DNA of 64,000 nucleotides from assembly GCA_963802945.1 (NCBI GenBank), contig CAWDKY010000033.1, positions 32,001 through 96,000 of the forward strand, in the 5' to 3' direction. The stretch is from an uncultured delta proteobacterium (GTDB lineage Bacteria > Desulfobacterota > RBG-13-43-22). A model generated the notes under the pieces. It had not been told where the DNA came from. It did not search any database and was given only the letters and a program-made list of their open reading frames with translations. Below are positions 1,334 to 59,857 of this stretch, piece by piece (within the stretch, counting starts at the first letter, position 1; every line of letters begins with the position of its first letter). A program made the position numbers and the translations under genes.

Positions 1334-2158
1334 ATGAATACTGAAAAAATCCCCGGCCCATCGATTTATCAGGAAGCGGCTAAGTGGTATCAATCCGAAT
1401 CCCTACAAACCCTGCGGGATAACTTTATCGAACTCATCCACCAGCATGACGTTCCCTATGCGGAAAATATCTTAAAAACCAACGATTGGGTCAATTATTG
1501 TTATTATTGCAGTCTGGTCCATTCTTTTGTGGCCGATCCGTCGGCCTTGATCATCGATTGAGGCGGGCTCTATGGCCATATCACGATGATGCTTCGGACC
1601 ATAGGTTATCAGAATGTCTTTAATTACCTCCTTCACCAAACGCCCCATTATTCCTTATTTGAAGAAGAGTTGAAGATTCCTACTTTGTGGGGCCGGGATC
1701 CGAACCGACTTGTCTTGGACACTAATTCCGTGGATGGTTTTATCTCTTCCGGGGTGCTGGAGCATGTTCGAGAGGACGGCCTTGGGAAGGAGGAAATGAT
1801 CCTCCAGGAAATCCATCGGATCTTAAAAGAAGGCGGTTTATTTTTTATCTGGAATCTGCCGGCCAAACTGGGGACATCAGAGCTACTGGCCATGATAACC
1901 GGAAAATGGCATCATCAATACCAGTATTGGAGAAAGGATATTGTTCGATTGCTTCGAAAAGCAAATTTCGACATCCTTTATTTCGACAAGCATAAATTTT
2001 TCCCCGGGGCGGTTATGGCTTTTTTGGAAAAAGGCATAGATCCCATCCGGGTCCTGCATTTTGACAACCGTCTTTCCCGCACGATTCCTTTTAACATTTT
2101 TGCCCGAGGTTTCGCCCTCGTTGCTCGAAAAAAGCCGGCTCATCATAATAACAAATAA
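1334..2158 (+). pseudogene. Class I SAM-dependent methyltransferase interrupted by an in-frame TGA at 1559-1561
   Basis: ORFs 1304-1561 and 1586-2158 are in one frame. Read-through gives motif I IID*GGLYGH, then SSGVLEHV and EIHRILKEGG. Confidence 0.75.
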
Positions 2159-2366
2159 GAAATCTTTATTTTTAAGAGAGGCCCCATGATCACAAAAGCT
2201 GGGGATATCGCTTTCTTCTGTCAGTGAATCCGGGACTGGTGGACAGAGGATTATTGAGGCAAAAGGTTATCTTTCGTCAAAAACCTAAAACCTTAACAGT
2301 GTCCCCATTTCCAAATTATTAGGGAGGGGTTAGGCGAACGATTTCGTTTTGCCAAAACTTCGGTTT

Positions 2367-2537
2367 TTAACGAGATGAGCGTCGTATGAGTATCAAAACA
2401 CCGACTAAAATAATAATTAACGGCCACCACTGGGCCACGAGTGGACCAAGGTGCGGCAGCCAACCAAAATTGGACAGAAGAAAAATGAGCCCCAACACAA
2501 TTAAAATGTATGCCCCAAACTGAGATCTTGCCCTCAT
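2367..2537 (-). CDS. 56-aa membrane microprotein (DUF5668/LiaI-LiaF-like TM hairpin), gene cassette
   Basis: Translated by hand: MRARSQFGAYILIVLGLIFLLSNFGWLPHLGPLVAQWWPLIIILVGVLILIRRSSR. AGGAGG RBS upstream. Not in the ORF track. Confidence 0.8.
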   Translation of the reverse strand: MRARSQFGAYILIVLGLIFLLSNFGWLPHLGPLVAQWWPLIIILVGVLILIRRSSR

Positions 2538-2569
2538 AAAGCCTCCTAAGTAAGATAGCCTTCCTAAGT

Positions 2570-2678
2570 GCCTAACCCTCGTGGCAGCAGCGGCCGAATG
2601 GTTTGCTGGAAATTTTACACTTTCATCGGTTTATATATCACCGCAGCCATTATTCCGCAAATGATATATTTATTCGGC
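2570..2678 (-). other. Degenerate attC site
   Basis: Minus strand: GCCGAAT (overlapping the upstream stop codon) to GTTAGGC core site, 109 bp; internal pairing is weak. Confidence 0.55.
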
Positions 2679-3359
2679 AATTCTTTTATCGGTTACACGT
2701 GGCACTGGTTGTTTTCCCTTCGGACAAATCCAAACACATCGTAAGCAGTAGGGCAAGAGGCCATCAGGACCATGCGGATCATATTCCCCTCTGGCTTTGC
2801 GGTACGATCGACACTGCAGACCTTCAAACGAATTGTCCGAGATCGCCTGCGCCGGACATTCTGAAATGCAGAGACCGCATTCGTCGCAGAATTGATCGCC
2901 TGACAACTTCGAGTGCAGGTCGAGTTCGGCAGTCGTGCCCATAACCCTCAGATGAACCCACGGTCCCCATTCTGGATGAAATAGAAAGGCATTTTGGCCA
3001 ATTTGACCCAGGCCAGCCGCTTGAGCCACGTATCGGAATTGCAGTCCACTCTGCCTCGGATAATCGACGAGTTTCACTTCACGCCCCTCTTGTACCATCC
3101 TCGCCTCGATTGTTCGGCAGACCTCAAGGAGGTGATCATCCGCTGCACAGTGTTCGCTGCCGCTATCTGTTGCATACCACGTCCATTCTTCTTCCGTGGT
3201 TACGTGATGGCCAAGCACGATTGCCGTACTCGCTTGCGGCATGAAACCCGAGAAAAATAATCCCTCGTTTTCTCGCAGGTGCTCGATAGGTACTATGGCC
3301 AAGTCACAGCAAGACCAGGAGTCGATGATTTGAAAAATGTTGTCAGAGTCCTTCATCAT
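2670..3359 (-). CDS. QueG/reductive-dehalogenase-like 4Fe-4S protein, gene cassette
   Basis: AAGLGQIGQN..FHPEWGPWVHL motif plus CDECGLCISECP and CLRCVWICP. Confidence 0.8.
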   Translation of the reverse strand: MMKDSDNIFQIIDSWSCCDLAIVPIEHLRENEGLFFSGFMPQASTAIVLGHHVTTEEEWTWYATDSGSEHCAADDHLLEVCRTIEARMVQEGREVKLVDYPRQSGLQFRYVAQAAGLGQIGQNAFLFHPEWGPWVHLRVMGTTAELDLHSKLSGDQFCDECGLCISECPAQAISDNSFEGLQCRSYRKARGEYDPHGPDGLLPYCLRCVWICPKGKQPVPRVTDKRIAE

Positions 3360-3402
3360 GTCGAACAAGCTATTCTAAAGTCTTCCGGTCAGTGGGGTCA
3401 GG

Positions 3403-4337
3403 GGGTCAGGTCTATTTTTTCAACATTATTTATTTTACCTGTGTCCGTATAATACGGCTTATTGAAGAAAAATGTAATCCTAAATACGCAGAAACTTGCT
3501 TCTGGGTGTAACCGTGTCTCTCCACTGCCTTCAATATCCGTTTATTTCTTGCTTCCTTTTTTCGAATCAATTCGGGGGATAATATTTTTTCCAGACTGGG
3601 TCTGTTAATAAAACGTTGGCTTTTTGATATGTCGGGAATTGCCTCTTTCCCCTTCAGATGATCTTTTAAACGTTCCACAAAAGAATCCTCCCCTAGGATG
3701 CTCTGAGCTCTCAAATCCTTCCAAATAGATTCCGATCTTATTCCAGCCCTAACAAACTGGCGATAGATTCCTTCCGCCTTCATTCTTTTGGGTGAAAGTT
3801 GCCCTAAGATCCCATCAACGGTAAGGCAGGAGGGCTTACTTCGCTGCCCTGCTGTAGCCGCATAGCTGCTCCATTTCCACTGGTTCGGGTTTTTTATGAG
3901 TTTTGCCCTTACCGGATTCAGTACGATATAACGGGAAACTTCAAGAAGATGGCTATCTTTTTGCACCAGAATACCCTTGAATCTCCCCTGGAATAAATGA
4001 CCAACGGTTCCATGTCGCTTATTGAACAACTGGGTAAACACCCCATTTAATTGTCTCATCCCAATGGAAAGGTTTCCATCAGGTGTTTCGATAAGCAAAT
4101 GATAATGATTATTCATCAGACAATAGGCATGGCAGAGCCAGTTATAGCGCGTGTTAACCTGGTAAAGGATTTTGAGGAAATCCTCACGGTCGTGATCATC
4201 CTTAAAAATCTCATTTTTGTTATTTCCTCGGCTGGTCACATGATAAAAAGCCCCGGGAAATACTATGCGTAGAGGACGTGCCATGAGTATCCTATATCAT
4301 TACTATATCTTCAATGTCAAGAAAATAGACCTGACCC
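3403..4337 (-). mobile_element. HUH Y1 (RAYT-like) element bounded by 25-bp inverted repeats
   Basis: GGGTCAGGTCTATTTTTTCAACATT (3403-3427) matches the reverse complement of 4313-4337 at 22/25. Extra tandem GGTCAG copies at about 3387-3401. Confidence 0.75.
3430..4284 (-). CDS. REP-associated/IS200-like tyrosine transposase (Y1_Tnp) with C-terminal HTH
   Basis: MARPLR..YHVTSRGN, HUH motif CLMNNHYHLL, GHLFQGRF, YIVLNPVRA, WSSY; C-terminal HTH (YTQKQVSAYLGLHFSSISRII). Confidence 0.9.
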   Translation of the reverse strand: MARPLRIVFPGAFYHVTSRGNNKNEIFKDDHDREDFLKILYQVNTRYNWLCHAYCLMNNHYHLLIETPDGNLSIGMRQLNGVFTQLFNKRHGTVGHLFQGRFKGILVQKDSHLLEVSRYIVLNPVRAKLIKNPNQWKWSSYAATAGQRSKPSCLTVDGILGQLSPKRMKAEGIYRQFVRAGIRSESIWKDLRAQSILGEDSFVERLKDHLKGKEAIPDISKSQRFINRPSLEKILSPELIRKKEARNKRILKAVERHGYTQKQVSAYLGLHFSSISRIIRTQVK

Positions 4338-4398
4338 TAATTTTTCAAACCGGTTTTTCAGGCAAACTGTTCTCCATGGGGTTCTCCTTAATATGCTT

Positions 4399-4511
4399 TG
4401 CTAACGACTGGGTATCAGCGGCGGCGCCGAATTGTCACCGGATCAGGTTTTGCGCCGATTTCCATGCCTCAACACCTGGCTACGCCATCCGCCTGAATGC
4501 CCTGGTTGGGC
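4399..4511 (-). other. attC recombination site
   Basis: Minus strand: GCCCAAC (R'') ..ATTCAGGCGG.. / ..CCGCTGAT.. GTTAGCA (R'). The L boxes pair with one extrahelical base; 113 bp. Confidence 0.8.
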
Positions 4512-4588
4512 AAATCAGTCTTGCCTTTTGTGTCCTGCTCACAGCGCCTTGACAGAATTTGATAATTTAATGACCGCCCCTCACTCTC

Positions 4589-5449
4589 TTATCCTAAGCC
4601 CTTCCTCCAATTTTCGTTCTTTATCGCATAATCAACAGCTTCGGGAACCATTCTTGTCCCGAAGACAACAGAATACCCGTCAGGAATCATCACGTCAAAG
4701 CGACCAGATTCCGTTTGTATCTGTTTCGGCATGAAAGGTGTGGCCGAAACTGCTCCGATGACCTTGCCAGTCTTGAGCCTCAAAACGGGTGCCCCGCTGA
4801 TGCCTGGAAAAGATGGCCGGTCGAGCCAATAATAATATTCTACTACTGGGGGAAGCCCGTATCCTACGGAAAAAGAGACTATAGCCTTGCTCAAAAGAGG
4901 AAGGGGGTGGAAATCTTCATAATACGTTTCAAACTCAACACCACCACGGGGGTAACCAATAAAAAGCACGTCCTCCCCCATTCTTGCCGGTTCGGTGTCA
5001 AACTCAAGTGGCGAGATGTTGTTGAAGGGCTCCGTCAAATGCATGATGCTTATGTCAATCTTCCAAAGGGGTTCAGTTCCGCTGGTCGGAACTTCGATCA
5101 GAATCGACCCCTCAGTCATAACGGGTTCAGTCGCGTCTTTCTTCTGCCCGACCAGGTACGCTCCCTTTGTCCAAGAGTCAACCACGATTACACGAGGATA
5201 ATTTGCGGCATTGACCTCATCGAAACCTTTAACCGCATGGTATCTTATAACCTTAACCTCATCGGCGCCTTCGACCACATGAAACGCCGTTACCGCGAAA
5301 TTTCCATTCCCTACGATGAATCCAGTTCCGATGCTACTTTTTTCGCCCGTTTTTCTACACTCAACCCTGACGATTGCTGACATCAGCTTGGAAATATAGT
5401 CAGCTTGCGTCTCGGGATTCTTACCCTTAATTTTTTTCCTTTTAGCCAT
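4589..5449 (-). CDS. Trypsin-like serine protease (S1), gene cassette
   Basis: GTGF, TAFHVV (His), DISIM (Asp), GYP, PGISGAPV (Ser). Confidence 0.85.
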   Translation of the reverse strand: MAKRKKIKGKNPETQADYISKLMSAIVRVECRKTGEKSSIGTGFIVGNGNFAVTAFHVVEGADEVKVIRYHAVKGFDEVNAANYPRVIVVDSWTKGAYLVGQKKDATEPVMTEGSILIEVPTSGTEPLWKIDISIMHLTEPFNNISPLEFDTEPARMGEDVLFIGYPRGGVEFETYYEDFHPLPLLSKAIVSFSVGYGLPPVVEYYYWLDRPSFPGISGAPVLRLKTGKVIGAVSATPFMPKQIQTESGRFDVMIPDGYSVVFGTRMVPEAVDYAIKNENWRKGLG

Positions 5450-5599
5450 ACGTTCTTACCTTTTGCCCCAACAAGTTATTCTAAAGTTTTTCTGGATAAC
5501 TAAACAAATAAAAGAATCCCATCGGGGATCCCAACGATGGCCTTTGGCTGCTGTGGAGCAGTCAATAAGACGCCAACCCTTTCTAGTTCCAGGTAACCT

Positions 5600-5628
5600 A
5601 TTATAAATGATAAATATTATCTTGACAA
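5600..5628 (-). promoter_or_regulatory. Sigma70 promoter facing the cassette array (Pc-like)
   Basis: Minus strand TTGTCA-N17-TATAAT. Confidence 0.6.
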
Positions 5629-5747
5629 TTTATTTCAAACAGTTAACAAAATATATAAGGAGGTCGAGCCCAATGCCTTCGACCTAAGTCCATCTGCCCT
5701 GATGTGGACGTACCTGTCCTCAGCCTAAACCCTGCCTTTAAAGTTTT

Positions 5748-5775
5748 CTGGACCCCGGCTTTCGCCGGGGTGACG
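5748..5775. repeat. Half copy of the REP-like palindrome
   Basis: CTGGACCCCGGCTTTCGCCGGGGTGAC, same family as 7804, 21214, 31403, 34854, 36812 and 50748. Confidence 0.7.
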
Positions 5776-5882
5776 GTGTGGGCAACGGAGCTCTTATTTA
5801 GTTAACGTAATTACAGTATTGGGAAAGACCGGACCACCGAATTAAAATAAATTCTGTTTCTCTAATTTTAAGGGAATGACTG

Positions 5883-6404
5883 ATGAACATATTGGATATC
5901 GGTTGCGGGAATCGGAAGATTAAAGGGGCCATCGGTCTGGACAGGAACCCGAGATCCCAGGCCGATGTTTTTCATGACCTGGATGTTCTCCCCTACCCTT
6001 TCGAGGACGATCACTTCGACCGAATCTACGGGATCGATGTGCTGGAACATGTAACCGATGTCCTTCGAACCCTGGAAGAGATTCATCGGATTGGAAAGAA
6101 GGATGCTCAGGTCTTTCTCAGGGTCCCTCATTTTACCAGCACCCTGGCTTACGGAGACCCGACCCATAAACATTTTTTCAATACACAGTCTCTGGATTAT
6201 GTTTGCGGGGGCTTTTCTGAGTATTCGTATAACCCTTCGGTGGTTTTTAAAAAGTTGGGGGTTCGATTAAATTTTTGGAAACTGCATCGTTGGGATGGAG
6301 TGTCCTTCCTGGCTAATCAATTTCCAGGTTATTACGAGAAACTCTTCGCCTTTATGTTTCCGGCCATGAATATCGAGTTTCAGTTGGAAATCATTAAACC
6401 TTGA
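5883..6404 (+). CDS. Class I SAM-dependent methyltransferase (type 11-like)
   Basis: ILDIGCG, DVLEHV, LEEIHRI, DPTH. Confidence 0.85.
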   Translation: MNILDIGCGNRKIKGAIGLDRNPRSQADVFHDLDVLPYPFEDDHFDRIYGIDVLEHVTDVLRTLEEIHRIGKKDAQVFLRVPHFTSTLAYGDPTHKHFFNTQSLDYVCGGFSEYSYNPSVVFKKLGVRLNFWKLHRWDGVSFLANQFPGYYEKLFAFMFPAMNIEFQLEIIKP

Positions 6405-6424
6405 AGAGATATTGGTCCGAAAAT

Positions 6425-6458
6425 AAAAAAGGGCAAGTCCATTAAGACTTGCCCTTTT
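6425..6458. terminator. Bidirectional intrinsic terminator
   Basis: AAAAAAGGGCAAGTC-loop-GACTTGCCCTTTT between convergent genes. Confidence 0.75.
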
Positions 6459-6466
6459 ATTAGCTT

Positions 6467-6552
6467 TGGTGCCGAAGACGGGACTCGAACCCGTACGGAG
6501 TTACCCGCCACCCCCTCAAGATGGTGTGTCTACCAGGTTCCACCACTTCGGC
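6467..6552 (-). tRNA. tRNA-Leu (GAG)
   Basis: Cloverleaf with long variable arm, anticodon loop TTGAGGG, GTTCGAG T-loop, CCA end; lies downstream of secG. Confidence 0.95.
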
Positions 6553-6564
6553 ACGAGGTATTTC

Positions 6565-6936
6565 CTACTTGCTGATCGGGTTGGCCGGACTCGCGGGAAC
6601 AGTCGGAGCCGCCGGTAACGGAGTTGCGGGAGAACCTGTCGGAATCTTTGTCGGCATTGATTGCTTTTGGCTGGCCTCGGAAGGAGTTCTAATCACCGAG
6701 GAACTGGACCCGGGGCCGTACATAAAAGCCAGGAGCAGAGAAGTGATCATAAAAACCGCAGCAGCGACGGTAGTCAGCTTGGTCAGAAAGGTCGCAGCCC
6801 CGCTGCTTCCAAAGATAGTCTGGCTTGATCCACCAAAGGCCGCTCCCATACTGGCCCCTTTCCCGGTCTGAAGTAAAACAATCAAGATCAGGGCTATACA
6901 AACTATGATATGAATGATTATTGTCACAGTTGCCAT
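6565..6936 (-). CDS. secG: Preprotein translocase subunit SecG
   Basis: VLLQTGKGASMGAAFGGSSQTIFG; tpiA-secG-tRNA-Leu synteny. Confidence 0.95.
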   Translation of the reverse strand: MATVTIIIHIIVCIALILIVLLQTGKGASMGAAFGGSSQTIFGSSGAATFLTKLTTVAAAVFMITSLLLAFMYGPGSSSSVIRTPSEASQKQSMPTKIPTGSPATPLPAAPTVPASPANPISK

Positions 6937-6942
6937 AACGAC

Positions 6943-7713
6943 TTATTGATTAACCTCCTTGATCAAGGCCAGAAATTTTTCTGCGTTCAGGCTGGCCCCT
7001 CCTACTAATGCCCCGTCAATATCCGGCTCAGCGCATAATGCCCGAATATTTTCCGGGGTGACGCTTCCACCATACACAATCCTTTTCCCCTTTGCAAGGG
7101 GTTTATTAAAACGATCCGCCAGCAATCCTCGAATGAAAGCATGGACTTCCTGGGCCATGGCCGGGGTTGCCGACCTTCCGGTACCGATGGCCCAGACCGG
7201 TTCGTAGGCAATCACCCCCTGGGCAATCGCTTCCATAGACAGCCCCTGGACCGCTTCCAAGACCTGCCGGGTGATGACTTCCTGAATCCTCTCCCCTTCC
7301 CGTTCCTCTAAGGTCTCTCCCACACACAGGACCGGTTTCAAACCGGCCTTCAAACAGGCCGCAAGTTTTTGATGGACCTGGGCATCGGTTTCTCCAAATA
7401 CATGCCTTCGTTCAGAATGTCCTATAAGGCAATAGGAACAACCCACATCTGTCAACATCCGTGTTGAAATTTCTCCGGTAAAGGCCCCGTCCTCAGCCCA
7501 GTGGACATTCTGGGCCGCCACTTGAACGGAGCTGTTCTGGATTGCCCGGCCGAGGGCCTGCAGGGCCGTGAAAGGCGGGGCAATGACCACCTCGATTTGG
7601 ATAGGACTTGGCATCCCAGCCATCAGCGCCCGAAAAAAATCCAGCGTCTCCGGGATGGTTTTAAACATCTTCCAGTTCCCCCCTATCCAGGGGCGACGGA
7701 GATTTTTTTCCAA
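6943..7713 (-). CDS. tpiA: Triosephosphate isomerase
   Basis: GNWKM, IGHSERR, AYEPVWAIGTG, YGGSV, LVGGASL. Confidence 0.98.
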   Translation of the reverse strand: MEKNLRRPWIGGNWKMFKTIPETLDFFRALMAGMPSPIQIEVVIAPPFTALQALGRAIQNSSVQVAAQNVHWAEDGAFTGEISTRMLTDVGCSYCLIGHSERRHVFGETDAQVHQKLAACLKAGLKPVLCVGETLEEREGERIQEVITRQVLEAVQGLSMEAIAQGVIAYEPVWAIGTGRSATPAMAQEVHAFIRGLLADRFNKPLAKGKRIVYGGSVTPENIRALCAEPDIDGALVGGASLNAEKFLALIKEVNQ

Positions 7714-7803
7714 TTTAATTCCTCTCTCAAAGAAAAAAGGGAACGGGGAATGTCCCCGTTCCCTATCTTTATTAGATTAATGATGATTCATTCCTATCAC
7801 ATC

Positions 7804-7880: not shown

Positions 7881-7932
7881 GGAAACAAACCATTTGAAAC
7901 TTTTATAAATCCATCATTTTTTGTCCCGAATA

Positions 7933-9982
7933 TTATCCCCAAAGAGAAATAATAATCGGCACGATCAACAAGGCCACGATGTTGATAACCTTGATCATCG
8001 GGTTAATGGCCGGACCGGCGGTGTCTTTATAAGGATCGCCGACTGTGTCACCGGTTACGGCTGCTTTATGGGCATCGGATCCTTTTCCGCCGTAAAGGCC
8101 GTCTTCAATGGCCTTTTTGGCATTGTCCCAGGCCCCGCCGCCGGAAGTCATGGAAATGGCCAGGAACAGCCCGGTGATGATCGAACCGATCAGCACCCCG
8201 CCCAAGGCCTTGGGTCCAAGGATAAGTCCGACCAGCACGGGAGTCACAACCGGGATCAGGGCTGGAACCATCATCTGTTTGATGGCACTCTTGGTCACAA
8301 TGTCCACGCATTTGGCGTATTCGGGTTTGGCCTTGCCTTCCATAATCCCCTTGATTTCCCGGAATTGCCGTCGGACTTCTTCGACCACGCCTCCGGCTGC
8401 CGTACCAACGGCTTCCATCAGCAGGGAACCAAAGTAATAGGGTAGCAAACCGCCGATAAACAGGCCGACAATCACAAACGGATCGGCCAATGAAAAGGTG
8501 ACCTTCATGGCTTCGGGGAATGACTTGGAAAATTCGGCAAAAAGCACCAGGGCGGCCAGACCGGCGGAACCGATGGCATAGCCCTTGGTCACTGCCTTAG
8601 TGGTGTTTCCAACTGCATCCAAGGGATCGGTGATCTTGCGGATCTTTTCATCCAGTTCGGCCATTTCGGCAATCCCGCCGGCATTGTCGGTAATCGGGCC
8701 GTAGGAGTCGATGGCCACGACGATACCGGTCATGGAGAGCATGGAAACCGCCGCCAGGGCAATGGCAAAAAGACCGCTGCCGGGATTGGCAAATCCGTTT
8801 CCCAGGGCATAGGCGGCCAGGATAGCCGCACTGATTACCAGACACCGGCCAGCTTGAAGACTTCATGGAGACTGCCAGTCCGGCAATGATATTGGTGGCA
8901 TGTCCGGTCTGAGAGGCTGCGGCAATATGTTTGACCGGTTTAAAGGATTTGGAGGTAAAATATTCGGTGATCACCACCAATAACCCGGTGACCAACAGGC
9001 CGACAACCGCTATCAGGAAGATATTCAGGGTGCTGAACTGGCTGGCTATTTCAGGATGCTTGCCGGCGAATTGATCGGTAGCGAAATAGAAGACGATGGC
9101 CGCCAGGATACCGGCCACAGCCAACCCTTTATACAAGGCGCCCATGATGTACTGACTCTTGCCCAAGCGGACAAAAAAAGTGCCGATGATTGAGGCAATA
9201 ATGGAAATACCACCAATCAGTAGGGGGAATTTTATCCAGGGGGTCCCGTCTCCAAAAACCGTTTTGGCCAAGAGCATGGCCGCCACCAGGGTGACGGTGT
9301 AAGTTTCATAAAGGTCAGCGGCCATACCGGCGCAGTCGCCTACGTTGTCGCCCACGTTATCGGCAATAACCGCCGGGTTCCGGGGATCATCTTCCGGGAT
9401 GCCGGCTTCCACCTTACCGACCAGGTCAGCCCCCACGTCGGCGGCCTTGGTATAAATACCACCGGCAATACGGGCAAAGACGCTCATCAGAGAGCAGCCG
9501 AACCCCAATCCGATCAGCGCATGGGTTTCTTTGGTAATGGCATAAAAAAGGGTGATTCCCAAAAGTCCCAAACCAACGACCATGATCCCGGTAACCGACC
9601 CGCCCTTGAAGGCCACGCCAAGGGCCTTGTTCAGACCGCCGTAAGCGGCTTGAGCGGTACGCACATTAGCCCGCACGGTGACCATCATACCGATATATCC
9701 GGCCAGGGCCGAACCGATGGTCCCGATCAGGAAACCGATAGCCGTCGTCCAGCCTAGGGCTGGAATAAAGCCGATAATCAGAAACAAGACAACGGCCACA
9801 ATGGCTACTGTTCTATATTCCCGGTTTAAAAAAGCCGTTGCTCCTTCCTGAACAGCTGCTGAAATCTCTTGCATCCGGGCACTGCCGGCATCCTGTTTAA
9901 GAATCCAGATGGCGGTAATTATGGAATACAGTACCCCGATAGCGCCGCAAATAATGGCAAAGGTAAAAATATTAAGATCCAT
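7933..9982 (-). CDS. hppA: Membrane H+-translocating pyrophosphatase, K+-independent type; one extra base near 8842 splits the frame
   Basis: [26 protein letters not shown] (Lys marks K+-independent), [10 protein letters not shown]. Removing one base restores [13 protein letters not shown]. Confidence 0.93.
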
Positions 9983-10277
9983 AAGTTTTCTCCTCCTCAG
10001 ATTAAAATAATGAAAAATAAAAATAATTTTTTATCAGTCAGGATTACTATCCCACCTCCCTATTAAAAAAACTTTTCAAGTAATTGTTATTAAACTTAAG
10101 ATATTACTTGTGAATTTTACAATAGAGTCCTCCCGCTTCTATCATACCCCCAGGGGGATGTCAAGATTTTTTCCGGAGATTTCTACTCTATCTCTTGACC
10201 TTAACCTTTTTTTCTTGACAGAATAGTAACCTTGGAAATAAGAGAGACTATATCTTCATTCAGAAGAGGAGGGCCTT

Positions 10278-10514
10278 ATGGATAAAGAGCAAGGGGAAAT
10301 TGGCCGCATGCAAATCAATGCTACGGACTATCTCCTTTTTTCGATCAAGGAATATAAAGGGAAACACTATGTTGATCTGAGGAAATATGTGGTCTCTGAC
10401 AGCTACACCGGCTTTACCAAACAAGGGGTCCGGTTTGGCTCCGAACTGTTCAATGAGTTTGAAGAAAAAATAGCCTTGGTGAAAGAAGCGCTGTTGAAAA
10501 ACGACGCCTTATAA
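10278..10514 (+). CDS. PC4/YdbC-family ssDNA-binding protein
   Basis: EYKGKHYVDLRKY...TKQGV motif; GAGGAGG RBS. Confidence 0.8.
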   Translation: MDKEQGEIGRMQINATDYLLFSIKEYKGKHYVDLRKYVVSDSYTGFTKQGVRFGSELFNEFEEKIALVKEALLKNDAL

Positions 10515-10767
10515 ATTCTCATGTCCGTTTATGGCGGGCTCCACGAGATATTAAAAAAAGGGATTCAAGTCCGGCCAACGGCGGGATTGATCTCTATTTT
10601 CGGAATAAGCCCTCTTGCCCCTATGGGGCACTACGAGGCAGGAAAATGTCGAATATCGAATAATGAAAACTGAATGTTGAAGTTAAACAGAAACCCAGAC
10701 ATTCATGATTCGAAATTCGATCTTCGAAATTCAATATTCTTATGGTCTAAATATAAGGAGAGGACCT

Positions 10768-12068
10768 ATGTACTGGGATAAAAAATTTGAGACTATGTCC
10801 TTGGACGAGATGCAGGCTTTTCAATTAAAACAACTCCGGGAAACCGTAGCCTGGGTTTATGAAAAAGTTCCTTTTTATAAAAATAAACTGGATGACCTGG
10901 GGATAAATCCCAATGACATAAAGGAATTGAACGATCTGGGCAAACTTCCCTTTTCCGTCAAAAATGACCTGAGGGATAATTATCCTTTTGGTTTGTGTGC
11001 CGTGCCCATGCAGGATGTCGTTCGAGTCCATGCCTCCTCCGGAACCACAGGCAAACCGATCACCGGTCCTTATACTGCTGACGACCTGGATCAATGGTCC
11101 AATTGCATGGCCCGGAATTTATACGCTGCCGGAGTCCGTTCCAACGACATCCTTCAAAATTCCTACGGTATAGGCTTGTTTACCGGTGGTCTGGGTTTTG
11201 TACAGGGGGCGGAAAAAATCGGGGCCACCCTCATTCCCACTTCTTCCGGTCAAACCGAGCGGCAGATCCTCATTATGCAGGATTTTGGAACCACGGTCCT
11301 CGGCTGTACCCCCTCTTATGCCCTGACTATTGCTGAAAAAGGCCAACAAATGGGGATCAACTTCAAGGATCTTCGTTTACGGATCGGGGTTTTTGGCGCC
11401 GAGCCATGGACCGTGGAGATGCGTAAAGAAATCGAAGAGCGCCTGGGTATCAAAGCCCATGAGGCCTATGGTTTGACCGAACTGATGGGCCCCGGAGTGG
11501 CCTTTGATTGCCAGGCTCAGGACGGTTTTTACATATCAATGAGGATCATATTCTGGCTGAAATCATCGATCCCGTAACCGGAGAAGTTCTGCCCCAGGGA
11601 ACCAAGGGAGAGCTGGTTTTTACTGCCATCCAACGCCGGGCCATGCCCATGCTTCGTTATCGGACCCGTGATATCACCATGCTCAAAAGGGAAAAATGCG
11701 CCTGCGGCCGGACCTTAATCAAGATGGAAAAGGTCTATGGGCGAAGCGACGACATGCTGATTATCGGCGGAGTCAATATCTTTCCCTCCCAGATCGAGAG
11801 CCTCCTTTTGGATCAAAAAGGGATTGAACCTCAATATGTCATTATCGTCCGGAAAAAAGGATATCTGGATAGTTTGGAAGTCAATGTGGAGGCTAAACCC
11901 GAAATTTATCAGGCCGGGGATGAAAAAATCAAAGAGGTGGAAAAAAGGATCGAGTCCCACATGAGAGGGGTAATCGGTATCGGCATCAAGATCCGTCTGG
12001 TTTCTCCAGGGACCATTGCCCGGAGTGAAGGCAAGGCCAAGCGGGTTATTGATGAAAGGAAGTTGTAA
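10768..12068 (+). CDS. paaK: Phenylacetate-CoA ligase; frameshift in a T-run near 11526-11530
   Basis: HASSGTTGKP, YGLTELMGPGVA, RYRTRD, GRSDDMLII. The two ORFs join at DG-LHINEDH. Confidence 0.9.
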
Positions 12069-57433: not shown

Positions 57434-58099
57434 TTATTCCTTCCGAAGTGTTTCAGCGGACGGAAAATCTTTCAACATGTCCATCAATCCCTGGCGGGAA
57501 AGTTCCTTAACCGTAACCCAGCGCATTTTACTTTTAATGAAGGATTTCATTTCAAAAAGATTTTCACTGAGGGATTTTTGAGTCTGTGCCCACTGGGCCT
57601 TCCAGACCAGGTTGCCATCTTGAACTTTTAAAAGATGGAGGTCCATGGCTATCGAGGCCGGTTGTTGAACCCCATAGGCTGTTCCTTTTCTTTCTTGATA
57701 GTGAAAGACGGTCCCCCAAAGCACATAATCCGCTTTCATCTGGATGCCTATGGCTTTCATTAAAATTAAGGGGTTTTTCTCGATCCCCTTGGCCAGCAAG
57801 GTATTGTAAACCCCCTCCACCTGGCCTGGAGGGATTAATTCAAAGCCTTTCCCCTTTTCCTGAATGAATTCCCATAGCAGATCGATCAGGGTGGAAGCCG
57901 GATCCTCTTCAATGGGTCCACTTTCCATGATATTTCCGCAAGATCGGCAGCGGATAACTTCTTTCCCGTAGCCGTGTTCCACTTCAAACGGCGCAACAGC
58001 CAAGCGCACTTCTGCCAAGGAGCAATTCACCAGTATAATAAACAACACCCCTATCGCCAACATCAGCAACAAGGACACTTTTTTTATTTTTTGTTTCAT
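57434..58099 (-). CDS. Exported hypothetical protein with CxxC
   Basis: N-terminal signal, RCRSCG, ADYVLWGTV..PASIA; start overlaps the hisB stop. Confidence 0.8.
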   Translation of the reverse strand: MKQKIKKVSLLLMLAIGVLFIILVNCSLAEVRLAVAPFEVEHGYGKEVIRCRSCGNIMESGPIEEDPASTLIDLLWEFIQEKGKGFELIPPGQVEGVYNTLLAKGIEKNPLILMKAIGIQMKADYVLWGTVFHYQERKGTAYGVQQPASIAMDLHLLKVQDGNLVWKAQWAQTQKSLSENLFEMKSFIKSKMRWVTVKELSRQGLMDMLKDFPSAETLRKE

Positions 58100-58701
58100 T
58101 AGAGTATCCCCTTGGTCGAACGTACCGTTTTCAAACCCACCTCAACACGACTGGCCTCAGCCATAGCCTGCCCAAAGCCTTTAAACATGGCTTCAATGAT
58201 ATGGTGAACATTTTCTCCGTCCAAAACCCTCAGATGCAGAGTGAAGCCGCCCCGATTGACCAAGGCCTGAAAAAATTCCTTGATCAAGGCCGTATCAAAG
58301 CCTTCCACCCGGACCTTGCGTGGTTTCCAGCCATAGGAAAGCTTGGGGCGCCGGGAAATGTCAACAGCCACCAGAACCAGGGCCTCATCCATGGGGAGAA
58401 GGGAACTCCCGTATCGTTTAAGCCCCTTTAAATCTCCCCAGCACCTTTTGAAAGCATCTCCCAGACAAATGCCGATATCTTCCACCGTATGATGAAAACC
58501 CACCTCTATGTCCCCCTGGGCTTTCAGATCAAGGTCTAAAGATCCATGATGGGCCATCAGCTCCAGCATATGATTCAGGAAAGGAACCGGAGATTCTATG
58601 CGGCTTTTTCCCTTTCCATCTAGAGACATTTTCAGCCGGATTTGGGTCTCCCGGGTCTCTCTGTTCACCTCCGCGCTTCGTCGTTTTGTAGCCTTTGGCA
58701 T
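58099..58701 (-). CDS. hisB: Imidazoleglycerol-phosphate dehydratase
   Basis: RETRETQI, HHTVED, PMDEAL, HHIIEAMFK. Confidence 0.96.
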   Translation of the reverse strand: MPKATKRRSAEVNRETRETQIRLKMSLDGKGKSRIESPVPFLNHMLELMAHHGSLDLDLKAQGDIEVGFHHTVEDIGICLGDAFKRCWGDLKGLKRYGSSLLPMDEALVLVAVDISRRPKLSYGWKPRKVRVEGFDTALIKEFFQALVNRGGFTLHLRVLDGENVHHIIEAMFKGFGQAMAEASRVEVGLKTVRSTKGIL

Positions 58702-58824
58702 TAGATTTCAGCTTTCAAGTTACAAGATTTTAACTTCAAGTTTAACATATATTAATAGCCTTAACTAATTTTAATTTTTAACCTTTCTCATCTCATCCAT
58801 GGCTTACTTTTTTGCCTGTTATTT

Positions 58825-58900
58825 TGGTGGAGATGGGGGGGATCGAACCCCCGACCTGTACGTTGCGAACGTACCGCTCTCCCATCTGAGCTACATCCCC
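58825..58900 (-). tRNA. tRNA-Ala (CGC)
   Basis: GGGGATGTAGCTCAG...TTCGCAA...TCCACCA, with the G3-U70 pair. Confidence 0.95.
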
Positions 58901-58986
58901 ACAATGACCCGAAAGGATTCAAGGAGCCAAGTCTCGCCAACGGCGGGCTTGGGCCCTATCTCCTAAAACCACTATATCAAAAAAAT

Positions 58987-59015
58987 TTGACAACTCATTA
59001 ATAAAAATATATTAT
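58987..59015 (+). promoter_or_regulatory. rpsT promoter
   Basis: TTGACA-N17-TATTAT. Confidence 0.6.
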
Positions 59016-59045
59016 TGATTATACTTTTTTAATGAGGAGGTTTCT

Positions 59046-59330
59046 TTGGCTAATCATCCCTCGGCCCTTAAAAGGGCTAAACAAAACAAGGTTCGCCGTT
59101 TTCGAAATGCGAGCCAGAAATCAAAAATAAAGACAACGGTTAAAAAGTACCTTCAAACCCTGGAAGCTTCATCCCAAGAACCAGCATCTCCGGCCCTGAT
59201 TCAGGCTGTTTCTTTGATTGGCCGCGCCGGTTCCAAAGGCATTTTACACCAGCGAACAGCCTCCCGAAAAATTTCCAGACTTTCAAAAAAACTCAATAAA
59301 ATTTCCAGACAACCAACTGCCCAAGCCTAA
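59046..59330 (+). CDS. rpsT: 30S ribosomal protein S20
   Basis: MANHPSALKR..KGILH..ASRKISRL; TTG start with GAGGAGG RBS. Confidence 0.96.
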   Translation: MANHPSALKRAKQNKVRRFRNASQKSKIKTTVKKYLQTLEASSQEPASPALIQAVSLIGRAGSKGILHQRTASRKISRLSKKLNKISRQPTAQA

Positions 59331-59857
59331 AAATCTTCCAGTATCCCATTGTGGATCCGTTCGGAGAGGTCCTGGGCAATTTTCTTAATCGCAGTTTGTT
59401 TGTAACTCTCGGTCTGATTGGGATCGCTGGTAACGTTGTAGATCTCATATCTTGACAATCCCTGATTCTGCCAGAGGATCTTTTTATTATCGGATCGCCG
59501 GCAATTAATCTCCAGGGTAATGGTCACCCTTCTCTGCAAGGCCTGAGTCTGGTTGGTATAAATGACCGGATCTATGGCGGCGGATTTAATTTTTCCAATG
59601 ATCTGGGCCTGAGCCGTTGATTCCGAAACCACCTGCAGGACTCGGCTCCGGTTAAATTCATAAATCAAGGCATTGGCAAAAACAACATCTATCCCCGGTT
59701 CGATGGTTTCATTGATAAAAGGGGGGATGTATACGCCTTTGATATCTGTGGGCAGGTTATTAACGGTCCCTTGAAAACTGTACCCGCATCCAGAAATAAT
59801 AAACAAAACCCCGAGCCCGATAAGTACCCTGAGACTACTTGGACGGATTCTTTTCAC
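59327..59857 (-). CDS. lptE: LPS assembly lipoprotein LptE
   Basis: Lipobox ISGCGY; directly downstream of leuS. Confidence 0.88.
   Translation of the reverse strand: MKRIRPSSLRVLIGLGVLFIISGCGYSFQGTVNNLPTDIKGVYIPPFINETIEPGIDVVFANALIYEFNRSRVLQVVSESTAQAQIIGKIKSAAIDPVIYTNQTQALQRRVTITLEINCRRSDNKKILWQNQGLSRYEIYNVTSDPNQTESYKQTAIKKIAQDLSERIHNGILEDF

Follow-up and report, generated by a model that had tools for sequence, protein, structure and literature searches.

A cassette array with a retained attI-like head, very probably left by a chromosomal integron after loss of its integrase gene

A stretch of 64,000 nt from an uncultured delta proteobacterium (assembly GCA_963802945.1, contig CAWDKY010000033.1, positions 32,001-96,000 of the forward strand; termed the window) was analyzed for a small array of genes on its minus strand that resemble integron cassettes. 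The array (2291-5634) is very probably a chromosomal integron whose integrase gene, intI, has been lost. The genome is labelled G000, its relatives carry labels such as G001 (genomes) and L011 (fetched loci), and comparisons within the genus were made with a set of 13 genomes. Along the minus strand, a promoter and its leader are followed by a gene for a trypsin-like serine protease, a transposase gene of the HUH type, a gene for an iron-sulfur (Fe-S) protein and a gene for a small membrane protein. Two plus-strand methyltransferase-like open reading frames (ORFs) flank the array, and a tRNA is located at 6470-6552. The original prediction had described the protease, Fe-S and microprotein genes as cassettes that start after a GTT core site and end at a near-complementary site, in an array without an integrase. 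All heptamers were found on the minus strand where they had been placed, with GTTGGGG at 5472-5466 and GCCCAAC at 4511-4505 around the protease gene, GTTCGAC at 3366-3360 and GCCGAAT at 2678-2672 around the Fe-S gene, and GTTAGGC at 2576-2570 and GCCTAAC at 2335-2329 around the microprotein gene. The wider claim of an integron-type cassette array without integrase was borne out by a match to an attC covariance model, a head of the type found beside intI, an intI pseudogene at the same locus in a relative and the lack of intI in the assembly. The locus is an integron remnant, an element of a known kind from a new lineage. One of its cassettes is verified, its head is retained and a REP-associated tyrosine transposase (RAYT) unit is inserted in it. 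It goes beyond what had been predicted in that a putative promoter and an attI-like head are also retained, in the form in which they are found beside intI in genomes of the same genus.

The head of the array and its counterparts beside intI

The array opens with a head in which a promoter block of 42 nt is followed by a leader of approximately 125 nt. The promoter is the best sigma-70 match within 2200-5900 (11/12 by sequence match) and is oriented towards the cassettes. Near-identical copies of the block occur 15 times in G000, together with one partial copy of 16 nt, and a DNA search with window positions 5465-5640 as the query detected the module of promoter and leader in 13/13 genomes of the genus, with 1-21 matches in each, several of them some hundreds of bases away from intI. 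At four of the eight intI loci that were fetched (G004:C14, G002:C47, G001:C166 and G007:C174; L011, L014, L015 and L016), the promoter block and the attI-like end lie beside a full intI and are divergent from it. At one further locus (G004:C38) the module lies beside an intI remnant of 49 codons, and the other three (G009:C5, G004:C29 and G007:C210) contain a more distant intI and no module. The full intI genes that adjoin the module score 354-386 bits with TIGR02249 (cut-off 265). The order at intI-linked loci is the intI start codon, approximately 75 nt, the promoter block pointing away from intI and a leader ending in ...AGAATAACTTG|TT, after which different genes follow in each genome. 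As the module adjoins a full intI in four genomes of the same genus, it is read as a putative promoter for the cassettes (Pc) joined to an attI-like site. The end resembles the simple site of attI, with AAC-TT-GTT placed after two direct repeats. A riboswitch-like leader and a Fur-regulated mobile promoter had been early readings of the module and were dropped once it was found beside intI.

The GTT at 5472 and the GTT at 3366 are both ends of a repeat. Positions 3364-3384 and 5470-5490 form a direct repeat (D5, 90% identical), and this 21-mer has 30 copies in G000 at ≤4 mismatches and 20 at ≤3, always positioned 10-35 nt upstream of a ribosome-binding site and start codon. The genes behind the module copies are unrelated to each other and look like accessory, toxin-antitoxin or defence genes. 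Two short contigs of the peat run X3 leave the window sequence at 5470, a weak indication in view of the short contigs and the repetitive nature of the module. In every public sequencing run, the share of sampled words present was at most 0.15. Between the promoter and the attI-like core, the leader also includes a terminator-like hairpin followed by a T-run (5513-5537), which could attenuate read-through into cassette 1.

The module ends in CTTG, a known target tetranucleotide of IS91. It could be read as the outward-facing end of an IS91-type rolling-circle element, with the supposed array being accessory genes behind a stray transposon end. Its many copies, most of them away from intI, fit this reading, as does the locus in G004:C38, where the module is directly followed by a gene pair for a tyrosine recombinase and a Y2 transposase. 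This pair forms an IS91-like element of 2.5 kb (L018, 6843-9389; tyrosine recombinase and Y2 HUH transposase) that is inserted exactly after the attI-like GTT. However, a twin of the element on G004:C17 (L071; 98% identity) has no module upstream, and the two copies share sequence only from the base after ...AACTTGTT. The twin without a module indicates that the module was the target of the insertion and not the end of the element. None of the three Y2_Tnp matches in G000 lies near a module, no Y2_Tnp match was found on the full-intI contigs of G001, G002, G004, G007 and G009, and in four genomes the module is paired with a full integron integrase, with cassettes bounded by attC coming next. 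The module-free twin and the lack of Y2_Tnp matches near the G000 modules contradict an IS91/ISCR terminus in this genus, and the IS91 reading of the window array is considered very unlikely.

Cassettes and attC sites

Covariance models specific to this lineage were used for the detection of attC sites. The underlying alignment contained 13 sites, none of them from the window. Nine came from other contigs of G000 and four from relatives, where some lie beside intI. Its proposed structure is 83.9% paired, compared with 72.0% in shuffles (0/500 shuffles reached the observed value), the L stem is 98.7% paired and compensatory changes are present in 10/16 pairs. Model R1 was built from this alignment and model R2 was rebuilt from 46 realigned matches at 17 loci outside the window. 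Each of the models yielded a single match in the 64-kb window, at 4397-4513 on the minus strand (R1 at E<=10, 22.4 bits and E 0.0038; R2, 29.0 bits and E 4.5e-6), and R2 recovered the same site from the whole genome at E 3.1e-4. The covariance-model match that had been proposed as a check of the array at 4399-4511 is therefore present with both lineage models.

Three attC sites had been claimed, and the one described as a full attC at 4511 is the one that both models support. The pair 2678/2576 and the site at 2335 produced no R1 or R2 match at E<=10 over the window. When the filters were switched off for 1500-6500, these regions gave matches to R boxes only (2568-2613 with 6.0 bits and E 7.2; 2289-2337 with 7.7 bits and E 2.5). 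The fold of 2289-2337 was no better than that of shuffles (z 0.07), and an Rfam scan of 1500-7000 at E<=10 returned the tRNA and weak chance matches, with nothing at the claimed sites. The 2570-2678 region is 96% identical in the sister genome G005.

The box layout of the site at 4397-4513 is the same as that of a site beside intI (L016:4847-4908), and the intI-adjacent cassettes of G007:C174 end in canonical attC sites, for example GCCCAAC...CAGCGGATGGC...GCCACCGCTGATC...GTTACGT. R2 detected 44 sites in G000 at E<=0.1 in approximately 13 arrays, most of them behind a head, a result that holds partly by construction, as many of these are training sites. A loose box scan also found similar sites of 50-70 nt on other G000 contigs. 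A repeat search found no clear array beside the intI of G009:C5. Other scanning approaches were of limited use. A scanner based on folding energy ranked 2/5 true sites of L016 at the top, missed the others and was dropped. A box-pattern scanner gave 34 matches compared with 19 in a reversed-genome control, and then 68 compared with 42; it was thus too unspecific to serve as a test and was used to find seed sites. MAFFT alignments that combined attC sites of different lengths came out of register, and no model was built from them.

An ORF-less repeat of approximately 170 nt was also observed in G000 (C53:153000-153249, C29:199033-199200 and C30:107649-107802, plus approximately seven partial copies). 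It consists of a long hairpin (GTTGGCGCCGCC...CGCCAAC) and then an attC-like site with ATT instead of GTT as R', is usually located directly upstream of a gene and looks like a cassette without an ORF.

The protease of cassette 1 had no match at E<=1e-15 among 60 relatives, and cassette 1 is on this count accessory and strain-specific. When the cassette proteins were scanned with PADLOC, the matches were confined to the N-terminus of the protease and to candidate families, and they were weak and partial. The Fe-S protein scores 49.9 bits with TIGR00276, below the cut-off of 200. The features of the array are collected in Table 1.

Table 1. Positions of the array features in the window
Feature	Position	Strand	Description
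Place of the missing intI	5635..5882	.	Between the promoter module and the methyltransferase gene 5883-6404(+); contains an inserted REP hairpin (5745-5775)
Pc-like promoter module	5593..5634	-	TTGTCA, 17 nt, TATAAT at 5628-5600; spacer conserved too
Leader and attI-like site	5470..5592	-	Two direct repeats (AGAAAAACTT, TAGAATAACTT), core AAC-TT-GTT, cassette 1 junction G5472/T5471
Cassette 1 ORF, trypsin-like serine protease	4589..5449	-	286 aa; PF13365, E 5.6e-14
attC of cassette 1	4397..4513	-	R'' GCCCAAC, 9 nt, L'' CAG(g)CGGA with one bulged base, 54-nt centre, L' CCGCTG, 10 nt, R' GTTAGCA
Probable stub of the next cassette	4345..4396	-	Ribosome-binding site and 10-codon ORF (4345-4377), ended by the inserted unit; read from sequence
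RAYT unit, 935 bp	3403..4337	-	Y1 HUH gene 3430-4284 between 25-nt inverted ends (4313-4337 and 3403-3427)
18-nt partial repeats of the RAYT unit's terminus	3385..3402	-	CCTGACCCCACTGACCGG; read from sequence
Internal truncated attI-like end	3364..3384	-	AAGACTTTAGAATAGCTTGTT, upstream of the Fe-S gene; repeat D5; G005 homology resumes at 3379
Fe-S protein ORF	2670..3368	-	232 aa, QueG/reductive-dehalogenase-like 4Fe-4S region; Fer4 families
Possible decayed attC	2570..2678	-	Good 3' half (CCGCTG, 11 nt, GTTAGGC), poor 5' half (GCCGAAT, TTGCGGA); boxes compared by eye
LiaF-TM-like membrane microprotein	2367..2537	-	56 aa; PF22570, E 7.7e-10
Possible last attC remnant	2289..2337	-	GCCTAAC paired with GTTAAGG, no L boxes

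A collinear locus in the same-genus genome G005 (G005:C94, L031) allowed the content of the array to be compared between close relatives. The two loci share window positions 2422-3379 (95% identity), 5473-5722 (83%), 5810-7724 (91%) and 7926-12000 (92%), and the distal Fe-S unit is common to both (95% DNA identity to L031 1-958). The stretch from the attI-like end to the Fe-S unit measures 2.1 kb in G000 and contains the protease gene, its attC, the stub and the HUH unit. In G005 this interval is 3.8 kb with four other ORFs, one of them encoding an HNH-type protein, and the first of these ORFs is followed by its own attC (G005:C94:4006-4068, R1 48.1 bits). No HUH gene is present in the G005 version of the array. 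The homology between the two genomes breaks at window position 5473, at the GTT, as insertion at attI predicts, and the variation in cassette content therefore begins at the GTT of the head. At the internal place upstream of the Fe-S gene, G005 contains a longer version of the attI-like end in which the hairpin is kept.

In principle the motifs could be chance matches in an ordinary accessory island that has no integron ancestry. GTTRRRY is expected about once per kb on each strand, GTTCGAC and GCCGAAT fall outside the consensus, and two of the three claimed attC sites fail the models. On the other hand, the sole model match in 64 kb falls at the predicted place, the head is homologous to intI-linked heads, an intI pseudogene is found at the same locus in a relative and the G005 breakpoint coincides with the GTT. 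The chance-motif reading is already contradicted by these observations and is regarded as extremely improbable.

Some features of the flanks were noted in addition. Two ORFs (1304-1561 and 1586-2158) appear to be parts of a single methyltransferase gene (1304-2158), a sign of a frameshift or of an error in the assembly. The minus-strand ORFs 8648-9982 and 7933-8742, which overlap within 7933-9982, resemble a single gene of the membrane pyrophosphatase type that is broken by a frameshift near 8700. The GC-rich hairpin at 5745-5775 (-10.8 kcal/mol, z -4.1) is one of a REP family whose copies number more than 30 in G000. It is missing at the orthologous position of G005, and wetland and peat contigs contain it in great abundance.

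Probable loss of the integrase gene

The G000 assembly (4.37 Mb, scored 100% complete) encodes no integron integrase, as the best TIGR02249 match reached 79.6 bits and the cut-off is 265. This whole-genome search for intI had been suggested together with the original prediction, and its outcome agrees with the proposed lack of an integrase. The statement that no tyrosine recombinase is encoded in the 64 kb also holds, since none of the four PF00589 matches in the genome is located on the contig of the window. A tblastn search of G000 with an IntI of the same genus retrieved Xer-like proteins and short remnants only. Among the relatives, TIGR02249 was above its cut-off in 22 of the 61 genomes searched, and an intI match at E<=1e-30 was obtained in 7/13 genomes of the genus.

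The place of the missing gene can be pointed out on the chromosome. In G000, G005:C94, G006:C69 and G007:C38 the promoter block abuts the methyltransferase gene (the orthologue of 5883-6404). In G001:C160 the orthologue of this methyltransferase gene is directly preceded, on the same strand, by an intI in four out-of-frame pieces. Taken together, the pseudogene in G001:C160 and the abutting promoter elsewhere point to decay of intI in one lineage and to its clean loss in others. Traces of the gene are retained elsewhere in G000, where the last 26 codons of intI lie beside another copy of the module (C41:19294-19371; 81% identity) and several heads retain the ribosome-binding site and first codons of intI.

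Further traces of this kind were seen in passing. Orphan heads at C26:~1250, C37:~16010, C16:~59790, C27:~188900 and C17:~146950 of G000 keep the ribosome-binding site of intI and at most a few codons, and their left boundaries all fall within a few codons of the intI start, a pattern that random deletions would not produce. The IntI proteins of the genus (G004:C14, L011 and relatives) have an N-terminal extension of approximately 170 aa, and short matches to it are located near G000 arrays (C29:23961-24098 and C30:105897-106073).

The retained parts allow a tentative account of how the array would work. They comprise a putative strong sigma-70 Pc-like promoter (5593-5634), a leader whose putative attI site ends in the bases AACTTG|TT (5470-5477), a first cassette consisting of the strain-specific trypsin-like protease gene and a bona fide attC (4397-4513), and the presumably older genes for the Fe-S protein and the membrane microprotein, the attC sites of which appear to have decayed. 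Transcription from the promoter would run through the leader into cassette 1, and an integron integrase would recombine attI with the folded bottom strand of attC at G|TT. As no such enzyme is encoded in the assembly, the array would be frozen unless IntI is supplied from elsewhere.

Such a supply is the substance of another alternative, in which the array still is part of a working integron and its intI is either unassembled or unbinned, or located on another replicon from which it serves this and other arrays in trans. The gene is common in the genus (7/13 genomes, as given above), and the intI contigs of relatives often end right at the repeated module, which indicates that such regions assemble badly. 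A fairly recent insertion is suggested by the attI-proximal content, which differs from that of G005 exactly at the GTT, and by the strain-specific protease. In one survey, half of the attC-site clusters without an integrase (CALINs) were found in genomes that encode IntI (PMC4889954). Against this stand the low TIGR02249 scores (≤79.6 bits) across an assembly scored as 100% complete, the small size of the only intI remnants in G000 and the state of the locus itself, where intI is cleanly gone and a relative has a pseudogene. An integrase acting in trans is thus considered unlikely, and loss of the gene is preferred.

Several observations weigh against an integron that has lost its integrase gene. 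Just one attC of the window passes the models, and the IntegronFinder definition of a CALIN needs two. The search of 1500-6500 with filters off gave no full-length match (best 7.7 bits), and it is suspected that this is because the match of 117 nt exceeds the scan window of the model. The free fold of 4390-4520 was not significant compared with shuffles on either strand (z -1.74 and -1.17), and a constrained fold gave a z of -1.07. An nhmmer search of G000 with the attC at 4397-4513 found only the site itself, and a DNA search of the genus with it returned only pieces of 16-25 nt. The attI-type end within the array, before the Fe-S gene, is unlike the expected product of the usual attI x attC reaction. 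Modules away from intI make up more than 90% of those in the genus (5 intI-linked loci among 122 matches in relatives), so the module may spread by a route other than intI loss. Finally, the assembly consists of 72 contigs with 6.7% contamination, and intI could be unassembled or unbinned.

The RAYT unit and comparison with known systems

The HUH gene inside the array belongs to a unit whose ends form an inverted repeat (I1, 88% complementary). Its protein passes the RAYT model NF047646 (84.9 bits, cut-off 80), matches PF01797 (E 1.3e-12) and contains a C-terminal helix-turn-helix (HTH). The translation reveals the HUH motif H60-Y61-H62 and Tyr119 within RYIVLNP, which we take to be the catalytic residues. 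Two other copies are found in G000, one on C16 with 98% identity and an internal TGA stop and a broken one on C30, both inside the ORF-less attC-bearing repeats of approximately 170 nt. The 16-nt core of the arms has 42 copies in G000 at ≤2 mismatches, some of which form close inverted pairs without a gene. The 25-nt arms fold at -1.4 and 0 kcal/mol, no better than shuffles, and are not REP hairpins. Homologues from relatives (59-76% identity) have the same left end in 7/7 cases and a matching right end in 5/7. The seven that were fetched occupy unrelated sites, and neither attC nor attI was seen in their flanks. No common flanking target was found among the three G000 copies and the seven copies of relatives, and the three G000 insertion points share no position relative to attC. 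A self-contained unit at unrelated sites in relatives is read as an insertion and not as a cassette recombinase, and from its sequence context we conclude that the RAYT unit is an independent mobile element that was probably inserted here. Multiple copies and non-orthologous sites in relatives also indicate that it behaves as an insertion sequence (IS) and not as a domesticated single-copy gene. The insertion would have taken place between cassette 1 and the Fe-S unit, where it would have truncated the next cassette to a stub and, at the opposite end of the unit, cut short an internal attI-like site, beside which the 18 nt of partial terminus repeats would have been left.

Related elements were observed at other arrays. 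On C16 of G000 (58635-59800; L070), a RAYT-like paralogue of 324 aa with the terminus GGGGTCAGATCT takes the position in which the promoter block would be expected after an intI-start remnant, and a cassette with an attC (57645-57715) comes after it. In G005, two copies of an element of approximately 190 nt (L031, ~3020-3210 and 990-1155) begin with the terminus GGGTCAGCCCTTGACATT, which is related to the terminus of the RAYT unit, and each copy is located inside the array directly after the 5' part of an attC-like site.

RAYT-like genes are found near arrays more often than expected. In G000, five of the eight RAYT-like loci are within 1.5 kb of attC, attI-end or promoter marks that cover 3.7% of the genome (binomial 3.6e-6), and a sixth abuts a weak attC match (C16:246703-246766, R1 21.2 bits). 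None of the four short IS200-type genes of G000 lies within 1.5 kb of array marks. Among the 84 RAYT-family matches in relatives, at least 12 are within 5 kb of an attC match, with roughly 3 expected (a hand count that used 150 of the 199 attC matches), and six are within approximately 5.6 kb of a head. One full RAYT-like gene is located between two attC sites in the intI-linked array of G007:C174, which also contains two partial Y1 genes. These counts are not independent across kin, and both RAYTs and arrays favour accessory DNA. An enrichment of this HUH clade near attC arrays had been put forward as a check; it was observed for the wider RAYT-like family, and not for the close clade in relatives (0/7). 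The link between RAYTs and arrays is real as a statistic. No published link between RAYTs and integrons was found in the literature searched.

The original prediction had offered, as one option, an HUH-associated cassette platform that has not been described before. In such a platform the RAYT enzyme would move or build cassettes by cutting single-stranded attC or attI hairpins. The enrichment near array marks in G000 and relatives and the gene between attC sites in G007:C174 are in line with this idea, and the enzymes of both systems act on folded single strands (PMC8266576). The cited passage draws only an analogy between enzymes acting on folded single strands. The idea does not agree with a self-contained unit whose seven close homologues all lie away from attC and attI, each within its own inverted ends at an unrelated site, nor with the G005 array, which differs in its cassettes without any HUH gene. 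Nor do the three G000 insertions have a common position relative to attC, and the arrays beside a real intI in the genus suffice to explain the cassettes. IS elements are common in integrons, with 23% of complete integrons and 12% of CALINs given in one survey (PMC4889954). The association counts are also subject to the kinship and accessory-region effects noted above. A platform of this kind was not upheld and is judged highly improbable. A broader scenario can be drawn for the genus as a whole, in which its integron is a family of at least a dozen promoter-bearing attI heads per genome, most of them without an integrase. RAYT elements might then be functionally tied to the heads, either homing to single-stranded attC or attI hairpins and driving repeated loss of intI, or mobilising heads and cassettes without IntI, in which case the head would be a mobile unit. 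This scenario is speculative and rather doubtful.

The comparison of close relatives shows directly how a cassette array without an integrase arises. At one and the same locus, intI is decayed in G001, and it is cleanly lost in G000, G005, G006 and G007 with the promoter and docking site kept, while full integrons with the same head exist at other loci in the genus. Surveys rarely see such a loss of intI because attI sites are unknown for most integrons. With a lineage-specific attI/Pc sequence and attC models, many repeats of G000 that would pass as "mobile promoters" or "hairpin arrays" can be re-read as integron parts, and similar repeats elsewhere in the genus may be re-readable in the same way. 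The enrichment of RAYT-type genes around integron arrays is apparently unpublished and testable.

The locus can be set against several known systems. It resembles the oriIS ends of ISCR1/IS91 in having a repeated, promoter-bearing module that ends in CTTG before unrelated genes, but the module lies outside the IS91-like element of the genus and pairs with intI and not with a Y2 transposase. RAYTs (also TnpAREP) and REPtrons were reportedly described by Nunvar in 2010 and by Bertels and Rainey in 2011. The HUH protein, a Y1 enzyme that passes the RAYT model, belongs to this family, and as in REPtrons its gene lies between two inverted short repeats that are also scattered genome-wide, partly as REPIN-like inverted pairs. 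In contrast to REPtrons, whose genes lie between short GC-rich REP palindromes, the flanking arms here are not REP hairpins, so the unit is not a REPtron, and unlike other RAYTs the gene is multi-copy (3 in G000), occupies non-orthologous sites in relatives and encodes an extra C-terminal HTH. The 25-nt terminal inverted repeats and the lack of a common flanking target also separate the unit from IS200/IS605 elements, whose Y1 transposases act with subterminal hairpins, without inverted ends and beside a fixed target of 4-5 nt. For IS1111-attC elements and group IIC-attC introns, the insertion point within attC is fixed. They share with the RAYT unit the location of a mobile element inside an array and a family that is statistically linked to arrays; the three RAYT insertions of G000, however, have no fixed position, and the close relatives are not at attC.

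Class 1 integrons consist of intI1, Pc and attI1, with a divergent integrase gene and a promoter that reads into the cassettes. The window locus shares with this platform an attI-like end at G|TT and a short inverted core (AAC..GTT) with direct repeats before the crossover. It differs in that its promoter is intergenic and not inside intI, that its leader of approximately 125 nt contains a terminator-like hairpin and has no sequence similarity to attI1, and that the IntI of the genus has the N-terminal extension of approximately 170 aa. Of the parts that make up a complete integron, intI is missing from the window, a Pc is present by sequence and a structured attC is present at one site.

The closest likeness is to sedentary chromosomal integrons and CALINs, with which the locus shares cassettes on the same strand that carry unrelated genes, for the most part unknown ones, an attC in which R''/L''/L'/R' boxes are combined with a bulged base and a centre that varies, the lack of a nearby integrase and a mobile element inside the array. 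A CALIN is a cluster of attC sites without an integrase, for which IntegronFinder needs at least two attC (Cury et al. 2016, PMC4889954), and that article names loss of intI as one proposed origin. With a single model-supported attC in 64 kb, the window array falls short of the two sites in this definition and is not a CALIN in the strict sense. In contrast to CALINs, it retains a promoter and an attI-like head, G000 contains approximately 13 such heads and arrays, and an attI-type end is also located inside the window array.

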